Positions 1,328 to 41,578 of a stretch of 64,000 nucleotides of DNA are shown here, piece after piece. Position 1 is the stretch's first letter. The number at the start of each line of letters is the position of its first letter. The notes under the pieces are model-generated. The model made no database searches. It worked only from the letters and a program-made list of their open reading frames with translations, and was not told the DNA's origin. A program made the position numbers and the translations under genes. The stretch is from a bacterium (lineage in GTDB: Bacteria > Hydrothermota > UBA3073 > JACQXS01), in the NCBI GenBank assembly GCA_030605695.1, contig JAUWHX010000012.1, positions 31,483 through 95,482 on the forward strand, in the 5' to 3' direction.

Positions 1328-3196
1328 ATGACGAGAGTGAAAGATAAGATAAAAGATAAGAATGCTATTGCTGGATTGGTAGATGGAGAGCCAAGAGACC
1401 TTTCCAATATTTTAGATGGCTCTGCGAAAGTAGAACCCCTTAAATTTGAGGATGAGGAAGGGAAGAAAATATATTGGCACTCCACTGCTCATATAATGGC
1501 ACAAGCAGTTAAGGAGCTTTGGCCTGATACTAAACTTGGTATAGGACCTCCTATTAGTGAGGGGTTTTATTATGATTTTGAGACTTCGCATCGTTTTACT
1601 CCAGAAGACCTTGAGAAAATAGAAAAGAGGATGAAGAAAATAATAAAAGCAGATGAGGGATTCAAAAGACGGGAGCTTAAAAAAGAAGAAGCAGTTAAAT
1701 TGTTTAAAGGTTTAAAAGAGGACTACAAGGTTGAGCTTATTAAAGAGTTAGATGGGAATATATCTATTTATGAGGTGAGAAGTGAAAAGTTGAAAGTGAA
1801 AAGTGAGAATGGAGAGTTTGTTGATTTGTGTAGGGGACCACATATTCCAAGTGCTGGCAGGATTAAAGCGTTTAAATTACTAAAAATAGCAGGAGCATAT
1901 TGGAAGGGCGACGAGCATAACCCAATGTTGCAAAGGATATACGGGATAAGTTTTCCGACAGATGTAGAACTTGAGGATTATTTGAAGAAGCTGGAAGAGG
2001 CGAGAGCAAGAGACCATCGGAAGCTTGGGAAAGAGCTTGAGTTATACAGCATTTTTGAGGAAGCGGGACCGGGGCTTGTAGCATGGAATCCGGATGGAGC
2101 AATAACAAGAGATGTAATAGAAAGTTTCTGGAAAAAAGAACACATAAAAAGAGGTTATCAGCTTGTTAATACTCCTCATATAGCGAAAGCAGGTTTGTGG
2201 CGGACTTCAGGACATTATGATTATTATGAACATTTGACAACCCTAAAATTTGATGATGAGGATTATGTGCTAAAACCAATGAATTGTATATATCATATTT
2301 TACTTTACAAATCCAGAATTCGGAGTTATCGTGAACTTCCAGTAAGATATGCGGAGCTGGGGACGGTTTATAGGTGTGAGAAATCTGGCGTTTTGCATGG
2401 GCTTACAAGAGTAAGGGGCTTTACACAAGATGATGCACACATATTTTGTCAGGAAGAACAGGCGTTTTCAGAAGTTATGGGAGTGTTGGAATTAGCTCAG
2501 TATATGCTGGAGTCGTTTGGGTTTAGAGATTATAAGATTAATTTGTCTGTCAGAGAGCCCGGCGGCGGTGGAAAATATGCGGGTAGTGATAAAGAATGGG
2601 AGCATGCAGAAGGAGTGTTAGAGGAAGTTCTTTCAAGTAAGGGTTTGGCATACAAAAGGGCGGAAGGAGAGGCGGTATTTTATGGGCCTAAAATAGATAT
2701 AGAGCTCTTTGATGCACTCGGGAGAGCGTGGCAGGGACCGACAATCCAGTTTGACTTTAATCTGCCGAGAAGATTTAATGTGGAATATATAGGCAAGGAT
2801 AACAAGTCGCATCCGGTGATAATGGTTCATAGGACGGTGCTTGGTGCGATGGAGCGGTTTTTTGGGATGTTAATAGAGCATTATAACGGGGCTTTCCCAG
2901 TATGGTTAGCACCTGCTCAGGTGGTAGTGGCAAGCGTAACAGAGAAGTCAACAGATTATGCGAGAGAAGTGGCGTCTGAGCTTGAAGGATATAGAGTTAA
3001 GTCATCACTTGGGGATGAGCAGATAGGAGCCAAGATAAGGAAAGAGAGCAAAAGCCCTTATGTTTTAATAGTAGGTGAGCGAGAGAAGAAGGCAGGAACG
3101 GTAAGCGTGAGAGCACGGGGAGCAGGAGATATAGGGAGCTATAGTATAAAAGATTTCATAAACTTGTTAGATAAGAAAATTGAAGCCAGGATATAA
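1328..3196 (+). CDS. thrS: threonine--tRNA ligase (short N-terminus, TGS domain incomplete)
   Basis: 622 aa. WHSTAHIMAQAVKELWP (second additional/editing domain), DLCRGPHIPS, class II catalytic core (FRRE-type region YRELPVRYAELGTVYRCE, GLTRVRGFTQDDAHIF), C-terminal anticodon-binding domain. SD AGAGG at 1321-1325. Confidence 0.95.
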   Translation: MTRVKDKIKDKNAIAGLVDGEPRDLSNILDGSAKVEPLKFEDEEGKKIYWHSTAHIMAQAVKELWPDTKLGIGPPISEGFYYDFETSHRFTPEDLEKIEKRMKKIIKADEGFKRRELKKEEAVKLFKGLKEDYKVELIKELDGNISIYEVRSEKLKVKSENGEFVDLCRGPHIPSAGRIKAFKLLKIAGAYWKGDEHNPMLQRIYGISFPTDVELEDYLKKLEEARARDHRKLGKELELYSIFEEAGPGLVAWNPDGAITRDVIESFWKKEHIKRGYQLVNTPHIAKAGLWRTSGHYDYYEHLTTLKFDDEDYVLKPMNCIYHILLYKSRIRSYRELPVRYAELGTVYRCEKSGVLHGLTRVRGFTQDDAHIFCQEEQAFSEVMGVLELAQYMLESFGFRDYKINLSVREPGGGGKYAGSDKEWEHAEGVLEEVLSSKGLAYKRAEGEAVFYGPKIDIELFDALGRAWQGPTIQFDFNLPRRFNVEYIGKDNKSHPVIMVHRTVLGAMERFFGMLIEHYNGAFPVWLAPAQVVVASVTEKSTDYAREVASELEGYRVKSSLGDEQIGAKIRKESKSPYVLIVGEREKKAGTVSVRARGAGDIGSYSIKDFINLLDKKIEARI

Positions 3197-34719: not shown

Positions 34720-37464
34720 GTGAATTACAAAGAGACCATACAACTTCCGCACACTGATTTCCCTATGCGTGCAAATCTCCCTGAAAAAGAATCAGAAATT
34801 CTACAGGACTGGGCTCGCATCCAGGTATACAAATGCATTCAAGAATCAAGAAAAGATAGCGAGCCATACATTTTTCATGACGGTCCTCCTTATGCAAATG
34901 GCCATATCCATATGGGCACAGCTTTTAACCGCATCCTTAAAGATATAATTGTAAAATACAAGACTATGGCAGGTTATAAAGTTCCTTTTATTCCTGGCTG
35001 GGACTGTCATGGAATGCCTATAGAGCGTGAAGTAATTAAAGAATTAAGAGAAAAAGGACAAAACTTATCTAATGAAGAATTAAGAGAATCCTGCAAAAAA
35101 TTTGCTCAAAAGTTTGTGGGCATTCAAAAGGAAGAGTTTACGAGACTTGGAGTATTTGGAGAATGGGATAATCCATATATCACGATGGATCCTGAATACG
35201 AGGCAAAAGTTATTGATATATTTAGAGTGTTAGTAGAAAACGGATATGTTTATAGAGACAAACGGCCAGTTCATTGGTGCACAAGTTGCAAGACAGCTCT
35301 TGCAGAAGCTGAGCTTGAGTATAAAGAAATTGGCTCGCCCTCTATATATGTTAAATTTAAAACACAGAACCCCAAGGTGTCTATCTTTATATGGACTACT
35401 ACTCCTTGGACGCTTCCTGCTAATGTTGCAGTAGCACTCAATCCAAAGCTCCGGTATGACTTTGTAAAAGTCGGAAGCGAGACCCTAATCATTGCCAGCG
35501 ATTTAAAAGATGCAGTCCTTGAGAAACTCGGTATAAAAGATTACGAGATAGAAAAAAGTGTTGCCGGCGAGGAACTCGAGGGAATGACCTACAAACATCC
35601 GTTATTTGATAAAGAATGCAAGGTTATTTTGTCAACTTTTGTTAGCAAAGAATCCGGGACAGGATGCGTGCATATTGCTCCGGGACACGGATATGAAGAT
35701 TATCAGGTAGGTCTCTTATATAAACTCCCTGTGATTTCACCTGTAGATGAGTCTGGTTGTTTTACTGACGAGGTTTCTGAATTTAAGGGAAAGTATGTTT
35801 TTGACGCAGATAAACACATAATAGAAGCTCTCAAGAAGAAAGGAACACTTGTTCATAACGAAGAGTTTTCTCACTCATATCCACATTGCTGGAGATGCAA
35901 GAATCCACTTATATTTAGGGCTACACCTCAATGGTTCTTGCGGATTGACCATAAAAACTTACGAGAACGATGTGTTAATGAGATTGAAAATGTTCATTGG
36001 ATTCCCAGATGGAGCAAGGAACGTATTTTGCATAATATATTAGACCGTCCTGACTGGTGTCTTTCCAGGCAGAGAAGGTGGGGAATCCCAATTCCTGTAT
36101 TATATTGTAAGGGCTGTGGGGCTCCCGTTCTTGATACAAAAGTTATAGAACAAGCAAGGGACATCATTAAAAAGGAAGGTTCTATTGGATGGTTCACTCA
36201 CCCTGTCAAAGATTTTATCAAAGATTCGTGCCGAGAGTGTGGCAACAAGGAATTTGTAAAAGAAAAAGATATTTTTGATGTATGGTTTGATTCAGGGGCA
36301 AGCTGGACAGTGATAAAATCGCAGGGTTTATTTCCAGCTGACCTCTATTGTGAAGGGGTAGATCATCATCGTGGATGGTTCCAGCACTCATTTTTGCTTT
36401 CAATGACTAATGAGGAGAAATCTTGCTTTAAGTCTGTTCTTACTCATGGGCTTATTCTTGATAAGGAAATGAAGAAAATGTCCAAATCGCTTGGGAATGT
36501 TATATCTCCAATGAGCATAATTGAGAAGCAGGGGGCAGATATTCTGAGACTTTATTTCTCGGCACTTGATTATACTTGTGATGTGCCATTTGACCCCGAT
36601 GGACTTGAATCAGCTGTCACGGCTTACCGAAGAATCCGTAATACATTTAAGTTCTTGCTCGGCAACCTTTATGACTTTGAAACAAAGCTCCCTTATGATA
36701 AATTGCTTGAGCTTGACAGGTTAATATTACACCGGCTTGCCTTGCTCATAAAAAAAGTTAAGCAGGGTTATGAAAACTTTGAATTCTATAAAGTTTACCA
36801 TAGCATTTACAACTACTGCACGCTTGATTTATCAAAATTTTATCTTGATATATTAAAAGACAGACTTTATACTTATGGCAAGAATTCTCCGGGGCGGAGG
36901 AGCGCCCAAACAGTATTACATGAAACTTTATTGGCTCTTGTGAAACTTGTAGCACCTATAATTCCTTTTACCGCAGAGGAAGTTTGGCAACATATAACTC
37001 TCAACTCTCAACCCTCAACTCATAACTCGCAAAGTGTGCACCTTGAGTTACTTCCTTTTGCCAATCCTGAATGGATAGACGAAAAACTTGCTAAAGACTA
37101 TGAGCTGATAGAAGCTGTACGGGATGATGTTCTGCTTGCACTTGAATCTGCAAGAAACAAAAAACTCATTGGAAATACGCTTGAGGCAAAAGTAACGTTA
37201 TGGACAGAGGATAAAGACACGAGGGACTTTCTTCAGCAGAAACTGCCGAACTTACCAAATATTTTCATTGTTTCACAGGTGAACATTGATAAAGTCCCAG
37301 AAATGTCGCACCTCAAGAAAGTAGATGCATTTGTTGATAAAGCAGAAGGCAAACGATGTGAGCGATGCTGGATATGGTCTAAAGATGTCGGACTGTCTTC
37401 AGAATACCCAACACTTTGTTCTAAGTGTGTCCGTGTATTAAAGGAGGATAATTATGAACGCTGA
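34720..37464 (+). CDS. ileS: isoleucine--tRNA ligase
   Basis: Start at GTG 34720 (VNYKETIQLPHTDFPMRANL). The track ORF's first 72 codons are promoter/spacer read-through. PPYANGHIHMGTAFN (HIGH), KMSKS, C-terminal CERCW...CSKC zinc motif. Confidence 0.93.
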   Translation: MNYKETIQLPHTDFPMRANLPEKESEILQDWARIQVYKCIQESRKDSEPYIFHDGPPYANGHIHMGTAFNRILKDIIVKYKTMAGYKVPFIPGWDCHGMPIEREVIKELREKGQNLSNEELRESCKKFAQKFVGIQKEEFTRLGVFGEWDNPYITMDPEYEAKVIDIFRVLVENGYVYRDKRPVHWCTSCKTALAEAELEYKEIGSPSIYVKFKTQNPKVSIFIWTTTPWTLPANVAVALNPKLRYDFVKVGSETLIIASDLKDAVLEKLGIKDYEIEKSVAGEELEGMTYKHPLFDKECKVILSTFVSKESGTGCVHIAPGHGYEDYQVGLLYKLPVISPVDESGCFTDEVSEFKGKYVFDADKHIIEALKKKGTLVHNEEFSHSYPHCWRCKNPLIFRATPQWFLRIDHKNLRERCVNEIENVHWIPRWSKERILHNILDRPDWCLSRQRRWGIPIPVLYCKGCGAPVLDTKVIEQARDIIKKEGSIGWFTHPVKDFIKDSCRECGNKEFVKEKDIFDVWFDSGASWTVIKSQGLFPADLYCEGVDHHRGWFQHSFLLSMTNEEKSCFKSVLTHGLILDKEMKKMSKSLGNVISPMSIIEKQGADILRLYFSALDYTCDVPFDPDGLESAVTAYRRIRNTFKFLLGNLYDFETKLPYDKLLELDRLILHRLALLIKKVKQGYENFEFYKVYHSIYNYCTLDLSKFYLDILKDRLYTYGKNSPGRRSAQTVLHETLLALVKLVAPIIPFTAEEVWQHITLNSQPSTHNSQSVHLELLPFANPEWIDEKLAKDYELIEAVRDDVLLALESARNKKLIGNTLEAKVTLWTEDKDTRDFLQQKLPNLPNIFIVSQVNIDKVPEMSHLKKVDAFVDKAEGKRCERCWIWSKDVGLSSEYPTLCSKCVRVLKEDNYER

Positions 37465-38336: not shown

Positions 38337-40010
38337 ATGATGGTAATGCGTAAATTGAGAAAAAAGATGAGAGTATTTCTATGGTTTGCTATCGTTGTAT
38401 TTGTAGCTGGAATGACTGCTATGATGGTGGGTGGCGGAGGACGAAAACCTACTCCAACAGAACAAGGAAAAGTTGGCGAAATTTACATAAAACCAACTTC
38501 TGCTTGGCAGAAAATGAAGAGATGGACTCGCAAAGAGAAAATACCTCTTTCTTATCGGGACTACTCAAATCTCCTTGAACACTACAAGAAACAGGGAATC
38601 CCAGCTTGGAAATGCAAGAACCTTGCTTTCAGCACGCTCGTAGAAGAAGCTTTGGTAATTCAGGAGATGAAAAAGAGAGGAATTGAACTTACAGATGAAG
38701 AAGTTGTTGAGATCATTAAAAATAATCCACCACCTGAATTATTACAGGACACTCTTCTCCTTACAAACGGTGAGTTTGATTATAATAAATACCTTGCTAT
38801 TATATCTGACCCATCGAACACTAAATGGCTCCAGTCTTATGAACTCCTCATAAGAAGTCAGATGCCAAGAGAAATCCTATATCAAACTATAACATCAGCG
38901 GCAAGACCTACAACCATTGACCTTATTGAAGCTTATGCTCATTCCCACTTGAAACTTACACTGGAATACGCACTAATCCCGAACCCCGAACCCCGAACCC
39001 CGAACCCCGAGTTGTTGGAATACTACAATACTCATCAGGATGAATTTATGCTTCAAGAGGAGCCAATTATAAATTATGTTGTCTTTCAAGTTCCAATCTC
39101 CGCAGAAGATGAAGATTACACAAAAGAAATTGCTCAGGAGATTGCAGATTTTGCACAGGGAGGTGCTTCCCTTGACAGCTTGGCAATAGAATACGGCTGT
39201 CAAATCATACAAACTCAATCCCAAACACCGAACACCGAACACCGAATCACGAAAAAAGACGACGGATACCACATAACAAAAGAAGATAAAGAATTAATCT
39301 TACCTGTCCGACCGTCTGATGAAAGCTTTGTGCTCACAGAAGACAAAGCCTCCGATTTTATATCTGCCGCTAAATCCGATTTCCTCTCCGCCGCAAAATC
39401 CTATGATTTAAAAGTCCACAAAGGTGCGGGTTATGAACTGCCTATCCCTGCCGACCTCTCTTACATTAACCTTGCTGAAAAAGATAAAATTATAGGCCCC
39501 ATTGAAGGACTTAATTGCTTTTATGTCCTACATACTCTTGGAATACAAGAATCTCATACTCCGGAATTCTCTACCCTGTCCGATAAAGTGCGAGATAAAT
39601 ATCATCACTCCAAGGCACAAGAACTTGCCCAAAAACTACTTGACAAAACAAAGGGTAGGTTGAAGCCCTCGTTTCAACCTTTCAAAGAAGTCTTACAAGC
39701 TAACGGATTTCCCGTCGAAACCCGGGAATTTTCAGCAGGGGCGATTCACGAATCGCCCATCCAACAGGAAATTTTCCTCAAAGCTTCAAATCTTCCTGAG
39801 AACGAAACCGGAATAGTGTCAACCGAAGATGGCATTTATCTCGTTCATTGCTTAAAGCACGAAAAACCAATCCAAGAAGAAATTGAAAAAGCTATTCCCG
39901 AAGTGTATCCTGACTGGATAAAAGAGGAAAAGGAAATGATTTACGAAGAGTGGCTTGCGAACCTAAAAACATCTGTAGACATAAAAGACTACCGATACAA
40001 AATCCACTAA
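38337..40010 (+). CDS. membrane-anchored periplasmic chaperone of the PpiD/SurA N-terminal-domain type (no clear PPIase motif seen)
   Basis: 557 aa. AGGAGG upstream. N-terminal TM (VFLWFAIVVFVAGMTAMMV) and PpiD-like architecture. Family call is tentative. Confidence 0.55.
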   Translation: MMVMRKLRKKMRVFLWFAIVVFVAGMTAMMVGGGGRKPTPTEQGKVGEIYIKPTSAWQKMKRWTRKEKIPLSYRDYSNLLEHYKKQGIPAWKCKNLAFSTLVEEALVIQEMKKRGIELTDEEVVEIIKNNPPPELLQDTLLLTNGEFDYNKYLAIISDPSNTKWLQSYELLIRSQMPREILYQTITSAARPTTIDLIEAYAHSHLKLTLEYALIPNPEPRTPNPELLEYYNTHQDEFMLQEEPIINYVVFQVPISAEDEDYTKEIAQEIADFAQGGASLDSLAIEYGCQIIQTQSQTPNTEHRITKKDDGYHITKEDKELILPVRPSDESFVLTEDKASDFISAAKSDFLSAAKSYDLKVHKGAGYELPIPADLSYINLAEKDKIIGPIEGLNCFYVLHTLGIQESHTPEFSTLSDKVRDKYHHSKAQELAQKLLDKTKGRLKPSFQPFKEVLQANGFPVETREFSAGAIHESPIQQEIFLKASNLPENETGIVSTEDGIYLVHCLKHEKPIQEEIEKAIPEVYPDWIKEEKEMIYEEWLANLKTSVDIKDYRYKIH

Positions 40011-40270: not shown

Positions 40271-41578
40271 ATGTTTGATATAAAATTTACAAGAGAGAAT
40301 ATAGAGCTCATTAATCGTGGCATCAAAGAAAAGGGCGAAAGTGTTGACATCAATAAATTTATTAAACTTGATGAGAAAAGAAGAAAACTCATAGGAGAAA
40401 TAGATGATATAAGGAGAGAGAAGAAAAAACTCTCTCAAGATGTAGCTCAACTTAAAAGAGATGGCAAGGATGCCTCTAATCTGATTAGCGATTCAAAATC
40501 CCTGTCAGAGAAGGAGAAGAATTTGGATAGTGAGCTACAAGATGTTAATTCGGGTATTCAGGAGATAATGGCAGGCATACCGAATTTAGCACACCCAGAT
40601 ATCCCTCGCGACAAGGAAACAGTGGTGAAGGAGTATGGAGAATCAAGTGTAGGGGTGTTAAATTTAACGCCCCCACGAACTGCAGATGAACTTTGTGATT
40701 CCCTTGAGATACTTGATTTTAGCAGAGGAAGTAAGATAGCCGGCACAAACTTTCCTTGTTATCTGGGACTTGGAGCAAGACTTGAGCGTGCACTTATTAA
40801 CTTTATGCTTGATTTGCATATAAAACAGGGATATACAGAAGTATTTCCGCCATTCCTTGTAAATCGGAAATCGATGTTCGGGACAGCTCAACTGCCAAAG
40901 CTTGAGGACGATATGTATTTTATCCCCCGGGAGGAACTTTTTCTAAATCCGACCGCAGAAGTTCCACTTGTAAATCTGCATCAGGACGAGACTTTGAAAG
41001 CAGATAGCTTACCGATTAAGTATGTTGGCTATGCCGCCAGCTTTAGAAGAGAAGCAGGTTCCTATGGCAAGGAAACACGCGGATTAAGGAGAGTTCATCA
41101 ATTTAATAAGGTGGAACTAATAAAATTCACATCCCCTGAGAATTCTTACGAGGAACTTGAGTCAATGCTGAAGGATGCAGAGGAGGTTCTAAAATTGCTT
41201 GGGCTCAGGTATCGTGTATTGCTTCTTCCCGTGAATGACCTCAGTTTTGCATCAAGCAAGACTTATGATATAGAAGTCTGGGCTCCTGCAAGTCAGGAAT
41301 GGCTTGAAGTATCTTCTGTAAGTAATTGTGAAAGCTTTCAAGCACGGCGAGCAGGAATTAGATTTAAAAAGTCGGCAGTCCACAGTCCACAGTCCACAGC
41401 TGACAGTCGGCAGTCGGTGGGCTCTAAAACTTCATTTGTCCATATTTTAAATGGTTCAGGAGTGGCAACCCCACGCACATTTATTGCCCTTATAGAGCAG
41501 TATCAAGAAAAAGACGGGACCATCAAGGTTCCAGATGTCCTCATCCCGTATATGGGCGGGATAGATAAAATCAAGTAA
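40271..41578 (+). CDS. serS: serine--tRNA ligase
   Basis: 435 aa. N-terminal coiled-coil arm. Class II motifs [24 protein letters not shown] and [18 protein letters not shown]. Confidence 0.95.

Follow-up and report, generated by a model that had tools for sequence, protein, structure and literature searches.

An in-frame heptanucleotide repeat array within the seryl-tRNA synthetase gene of a WOR-3 bacterium, a probable passenger of a genome-wide repeat process

The DNA analysed here, called the window throughout, is a 64,000-nucleotide stretch of a MAG (G000) of the bacterial phylum WOR-3. It carries serS, whose product matched the equivalog HMM TIGR00414 with 435.2 bits (curated cut-off 301.65) over residues 1-428 and matched solved bacterial SerRS structures at E ~1e-116 (phmmer against the PDB). 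One SerRS gene was matched in the whole MAG, which is 84% complete. SerRS genes were taken from 40 genomes of the same phylum, and 30 sequences, the window's own and those of 29 WOR-3 relatives, were aligned; the columns of class II motif 2 (FRREAGSYG) and motif 3 (GSGVATPR) were invariant across all of them. AF2, run on this alignment, predicted a confident SerRS fold (mean pLDDT 86, pTM 0.83) in which the N-terminal coiled-coil tRNA-binding arm is present as helices 27-63 and 69-100, and a Foldseek comparison of the model gave TM scores of 0.87-0.89 to 6x94, 6r1n and 6r1m. With its catalytic motifs intact and its fold normal, the enzyme is probably active despite the insert described below. 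The features of the locus and of the other repeat-bearing genes in the window are collected in Table 1.

Table 1. Positions in the window of serS and of the repeat features in and around it.
Feature	Position	Strand	Basis
thrS heptamer-array insert, 33 nt, VRSEKLKVKSE	1770..1802	+	TRF, comparison with relatives
ileS heptamer array, AACTCTC type, in frame	36996..37032	+	TRF, G001 comparison
SurA/PpiD-like gene, (CCCCGAA)n array	38978..39010	+	TRF, G001 comparison
SurA/PpiD-like gene, second array, (AACACCG)3 + AATCACG	39216..39255	+	TRF, G001 comparison
serS, bacterial-type seryl-tRNA synthetase, 435 aa	40271..41578	+	ORF, TIGR00414, PDB matches, AF2 model
Second small insert in serS, 28-nt near-palindrome GTAGGGGTGTTAAATTTAACGCCCCCAC	40649..40676	+	Comparison with relatives, RNA fold
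Heptamer array in serS, seven 7-nt units, GC 63%	41371..41419	+	Sequence, TRF, 14-mer count
Lineage-specific in-frame segment of serS, codons S368-V383 (16 residues)	41372..41419	+	DNA and protein alignments, pLDDT

A first-pass annotation made from the sequence alone had reported a block of heptamers inserted in serS with the reading frame preserved, and we confirmed both the seven units and the frame. The units are, in order, GTCGGCA, GTCCACA three times, GCTGACA, GTCGGCA and GTCGGTG, and their GC content stands well above the 38% of the genome. TRF placed a period-7 array of 6.7 copies with 80% matches at 41370-41416, with a perfect core of 3.4 copies at 41376-41399. A 14-mer consisting of two core units, GTCCACAGTCCACA, occurred three times when up to two mismatches were allowed, solely at the serS array (expectation 0.12), and three or more occurrences were seen in none of 100 shuffles. 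The tract is imperfect, its longest run of identical units being three, and lies 1.1 kb into the gene. Within the ORF it is translated in frame and free of stops as the stretch from K367 to G384, with the conserved segments RFK and FVHILNGSG on either side. No significant secondary structure was found for the array (DNA fold -7 kcal/mol, z -1.26), and an origin from a hairpin or cruciform was rejected on these values.

Comparison with relatives showed that the array is peculiar to the lineage of the window. In the 30-sequence alignment the extra 16 residues were present in the window protein alone, while a single G occupied the site in 29 of 29 relatives. The PDB sequences 2dq3, 6x94 and 6r1n likewise left a gap of 14-16 residues opposite the insert, and the nearest metagenomic homologues in a collection of 5.8 billion proteins, namely P0003 (from genome G001), P0122, P0004 and P0005, were without it. 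The first-pass annotation had named an orthologue alignment as the check for an ancient conserved loop; no such loop emerged, the insert being absent from every orthologue examined, those of the same genus included. At the DNA level, the serS genes of G001, P0122 (locus L117) and P0004 are 89.9%, 87.1% and 85.4% identical to that of the window. The interval from TTTAAA to TTTGT spans 66 nt in the window compared to 24 nt in both G001 and L117, a net gain of 42 nt (6x7 nt, or 14 codons), and 18 nt in G002, relative to which the window has 48 nt more. Because the relatives' genes also vary around the insert site by small indels of 3 and 6 nt, a gain of exactly six units is suggestive but not proven by these intervals. 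No seed of the heptamer unit was evident in the relatives' serS genes, and among the orthologues examined the DNA at the insert site is a repeat array in the window's lineage only. The insert is lineage-specific and recent, its gain postdating a DNA divergence of about 10% from the closest relative that lacks it.

The same array was found in other assemblies. A 435-aa protein 99% identical to the window SerRS (P0002) is encoded on contigs of GCA_030633585.1 and ERZ23498719, belonging to a strain whose serS is 98.1% identical to that of the window, and the array in both assemblies matches that of the window at every base. The insert has become fixed in two strains or more, and no variation in array length was seen across the three assemblies. 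Because independent assemblies contain the same array, an assembly artefact is very unlikely to be its source. As a separate observation, the window and the 98%-identical strain (L118) differ in serS at 25 positions, all of which fall in the middle third of the gene, at about 40860-41100, where L118 resembles L117 and the window resembles L120, the P0004 locus. This clustering indicates probable mosaic recombination between co-occurring lineages.

In the AF2 model the insert forms a loop of low confidence where a hairpin turns. Only two segments had pLDDT values below 50, residues 261-269 in the motif-2 loop, which is mobile in SerRS, and residues 371-384 in the insert. The insert joins the predicted strands 364-366 and 387-389, and as modelled it would lengthen the beta-hairpin turn that leads into motif 3. 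Its peptide is hydrophilic, of low complexity and predicted to be disordered; in this it is like many other array products of the genome, and the word VHSPQST recurs in unrelated proteins. The earlier suggestion that the enzyme either tolerates or has exapted a repeat expansion in a surface loop can be divided accordingly: tolerance is favored by the retained frame, the intact motifs and the modelled loop, and exaptation is without support.

The near-palindrome that forms a second small insert in serS is likewise translated in frame, adding three residues, and is absent from G001, G002 and P0004; at the same site the serS gene of P0122 (L117) has a different version that is still palindromic, GTAGGGGCGGTTCGCGAACCGCCCCCGC. 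Folded as RNA, the window's copy reached -17.4 kcal/mol (z -3.35). It is a member of a family of 28-nt palindromes of the form GTAGGGG...CCCCTAC, observed at no fewer than 45 loci of the genome (e.g. C42:27940, C22:6026 and C37:47718); one of its other members lies in the window at 39735-39762, in the ppiD-like gene. The interior of these palindromes is variable yet self-complementary. We take the GTAG head of the family to resemble REP/RAYT-type elements, from which the copies described here differ in being intragenic: about three quarters lie within ORF-based gene calls, where they read as VGAVREPPL, VGAIHELPL, VGVQNFEPL and the like.

The array in serS is not the only one in the window. Within these 64 kb, thrS, ileS and serS each contain one in-frame heptamer array, and the SurA/PpiD-like gene upstream of serS contains two. 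The thrS insert is absent from five relatives, has GAG on both sides and measures 33 nt, which is not a multiple of 7. The ileS array is also present in G001 at the same position and with the same length, its units having partly diverged. For the SurA/PpiD-like gene, the (CCCCGAA)n array of the window's genome corresponds to a (CCCCAAT)n array of equal length in the G001 orthologue (L111 2657-2690), and the second array likewise has an equally long counterpart made of different units (L111 2899-2934). The flanks of these arrays are ~97-99% identical between the two congeners, whereas inside the arrays every unit has been altered alike. This comparison shows arrays that mutate much faster than their flanks, with units evolving in concert while frame and length are held.

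A further array was found in serS itself in the sister lineage P0004, which has 88% amino acid identity to the window protein over aligned columns. There, the N-terminal coiled-coil arm contains an (AGACAAG)5.7 array (L120 966-1005; ENA ERZ23498859) that encodes QDKRQETRDRRQKTEE and accounts for 8 additional residues (+24 nt). This array is independent of the one in the window. Arrays have thus reached serS more than once and persist there at distinct positions that permit them. At the same locus, a tandem repeat of 138 nt (also 276 and 414 nt) at L120 2489-3345 fills a 502-aa gene on the opposite strand, located between serS and rph and absent from the corresponding position in the window.

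We also analyzed heptamer arrays across the whole MAG (1.98 Mb in 93 contigs, 90% coding by ORF-based gene calls). At a TRF score of at least 40 there were 282 period-7 arrays, compared to none in a 3rd-order Markov shuffle. After merging, 277 arrays remained, of which 234 (84%) lie wholly within genes and 31 between genes; the density of arrays is about equal inside and between genes. This does not fit the label of an intergenic repeat type that the first-pass annotation had given to the serS heptamers. The intergenic share of arrays with other periods is 45 of 96 for period 8 and 45 of 57 for period 10. Array lengths overall peak at ~32-36 nt (about 4.7 units), and exact heptamer arrays have a sharp mode at 32-33 nt; furthermore, a length of 31-36 nt is found in 57% of genic arrays compared to 29% of intergenic ones (Fisher p = 0.004). 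The unit vocabulary is skewed, with 104 canonical units for ~280 arrays, the commonest being CACGATT (18), AACTCTT (14) and AACTCTC (13), and peptides such as HDSRFTI and NSQLSTL recur among the products. GTCCACA, the core unit of the serS array, is also arrayed at C8:7387, C58:30535, C22:6249 and C37:44426. Transposition of a (CAGTCCA)n element together with its flanks was rejected, because the flanks of the five arrays are unrelated and show no target duplications; terminal motifs common to the five were likewise absent.

The relatives were sampled for their heptamer load with five stretches of 17-20 kb and one word-pattern scan. Arrays with an AACTC core numbered 116 in G000, 80 in G001 and 18-50 in G002, G003 and G005, and were close to 0 elsewhere in the class and phylum. 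From the word-pattern scan, with which the sample stretches agree, the trait appears to be limited to this family together with certain lineages of its order. Loss of mismatch repair was considered as a cause of the arrays and rejected: G000 and the array-rich relatives all encode uninterrupted MutS and MutL.

No paper linking WOR-3 to heptanucleotide repeats was found in the literature, and we compared the serS array with repeats known from other organisms. Its closest mechanistic analogue is the poly-psi VNTR of neuO in the E. coli K1 prophage CUS-3, a 5'-AAGACTC-3' heptanucleotide repeat that forms a perfect tract of 2-93 copies located 2 nt after the start codon and acts both as an on/off switch and as an activity dial (PMC3046976). 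In neuO, three 7-nt units make one heptad, and the frame is kept solely at multiples of three units (PMC3046976). The two systems share tandem 7-nt units in coding sequence that are read through each of the three phases; in the neuO structure the segment so encoded is flexible or could not be resolved. However, neuO is a non-essential surface-modification gene with a variable tract, whereas the serS array is imperfect, has seven units, is invariant in three assemblies and lies inside an essential enzyme's catalytic domain.

[quoted passage not shown] Unlike these G-rich heptamers and the STRR repeats of cyanobacteria, which comprise one or a few conserved words and are enriched between genes, the arrays described here draw on about 100 words (the 104 canonical units), are 84% genic and belong to the phylum WOR-3. 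STRR heptamers were reportedly described by Vioque in 1997 inside the essential RNase P RNA gene (rnpB) of heterocyst-forming cyanobacteria. As with the cyanobacterial repeats, we observed a genome-wide excess of heptamers and a small preferred copy number (four there, ~4.7 here), and in both cases an essential gene can harbor an array in one of its variable parts. Low-complexity loop insertions also occur in eukaryotic housekeeping enzymes, aminoacyl-tRNA synthetases included, for example in proteins of Plasmodium and Dictyostelium; they are mostly trinucleotide or codon-level repeats and are generally read as tolerated products of biased mutation. The serS insert is similar to these in being hydrophilic, disordered and placed at a surface loop of an otherwise conserved enzyme, but differs in its 7-nt unit, which runs out of register with the codons, and in its host, a bacterium with a 2-Mb genome.

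Altogether, we favor the interpretation, to which we give a probability of roughly 0.7, that the serS block is a young, lineage-specific array and a tolerated, translated passenger of a genome-wide heptamer process that is filtered by selection. A process generating heptamer arrays throughout the genomes of this WOR-3 family would have produced a 7-nt tandem array inside serS of one species-level lineage, and the array would be translated as a hydrophilic, disordered extension of 14-16 residues at the beta-hairpin turn just upstream of motif 3. Selection would retain those arrays that keep the frame and are free of stops in all three phases traversed, and arrays would survive where the structure permits them, for instance in loops, arm tips and linkers. 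Their growth and homogenization may proceed by replication slippage or unequal exchange of 7-nt units, and these would account for the gain of six units, the nested variants (GTCGGCA around three copies of GTCCACA) and the concerted changes in the ppiD-like gene. The insert itself is most likely a neutral passenger; neutral or slightly deleterious effects seem more probable to us than a useful one.

Slippage nevertheless fits several of the observations poorly, namely the size mode of ~33 nt, the 33-nt thrS insert, the relatives lacking a seed and the fact that period 7 alone is at home in genes. Simple slippage predicts multiples of 7, yet the differences seen include +48 nt relative to G002, +33 nt in thrS and +24 nt in P0004, and the contrast between period 7 and periods 8 and 10 in genes is not readily explained by a random process combined with purifying selection. 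It is therefore possible, though we consider it doubtful, that a dedicated, lineage-specific mechanism wrote a ready-made block of ~33-48 nt in place of stepwise slippage of a local seed, with templated insertion at breaks, a small mobile element, or polymerase or primase stutter favoring period 7 as candidates. The 32-33 nt peak of exact arrays, the 31-36 nt length of 57% of genic arrays, the exactly 33-nt thrS insert bordered by GAG..GAG, the seedless serS genes of the relatives, the recurrence of a limited vocabulary at unrelated loci (104 canonical units in 280 arrays) and the unlike behavior of period 7 and periods 8-10 all speak for such block writing, as do MutS and MutL, whose integrity means that a general repair defect is not the cause. 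Against it, arrays of the same unit share no flanks, target-site duplications or terminal motifs, orthologous arrays change their units in concert at constant length, which is classic tandem-repeat homogenization, the gain relative to the nearest relatives is apparently exactly six units, and a candidate enzyme was not found. With the same reservation, a clade-specific process may write period-7 blocks of ~33 nt preferentially into transcribed or coding DNA. If true, the clade would have an inbuilt source of protein insertions, drawing on a word vocabulary of its own and continually yielding new loops, linkers and termini, even in essential enzymes such as SerRS, ThrRS and IleRS.

Three further readings are weaker than the passenger interpretation. 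That the loop has been exapted, so that SerRS would interact or be regulated in a new way and selection on the peptide, positive or purifying, would maintain it, could be argued from the identity of the insert in two strains that differ elsewhere in serS, and from neuO, where heptads encoded by heptanucleotides raise catalytic efficiency (PMC3046976). However, the surroundings of the insert are identical in both strains as well and give no signal of selection on the peptide, which is moreover of low complexity, predicted to be disordered, absent from all relatives examined and in part (VHSPQST) recurrent in unrelated proteins; we regard exaptation as improbable. The heptanucleotide tracts that switch neuO (PMC3046976) also raise the notion of a contingency tract that toggles serS between on and off states whenever a single 7-nt unit is added or lost. 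This is implausible: neuO-type contingency loci combine a perfect long tract, a dispensable gene and frequent frameshifts, whereas serS is the sole SerRS gene found and should be essential, and its tract lies 1.1 kb into the gene, has the same length in three assemblies and is imperfect with at most three identical units in a row, which would lessen slippage. Hardly more credible is a block that is an artefact of assembly or binning, or is bypassed or removed before it reaches the protein. The genome is a MAG, repeats can mis-assemble and the block is GC-rich relative to the genome, but three independent assemblies, one with a contig of 103 kb, agree on an identical sequence. Translational bypass, an intein and an intron were each rejected: bypass is unneeded for a block that is in frame, stop-free and without significant secondary structure (z -1.26), and at 48 nt the block has nowhere near the length of an intron or intein.

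The serS insert offers a clean and datable case in which an out-of-phase 7-nt DNA repeat would have become an additional loop of an essential enzyme, within its catalytic domain, with the nearest relatives supplying the "before" state and the sister lineage a second, independent event in the same gene. Its interest lies in the genome-wide phenomenon that it exemplifies and in the mechanism behind the arrays. On the genome-wide counts, this WOR-3 clade runs counter to published work, in which the heptamer repeats of bacteria are seen to avoid coding regions. The clade may thus serve as a natural system for the birth of loops and linkers, for the insertion tolerance of an aminoacyl-tRNA synthetase and for what makes period 7 special.
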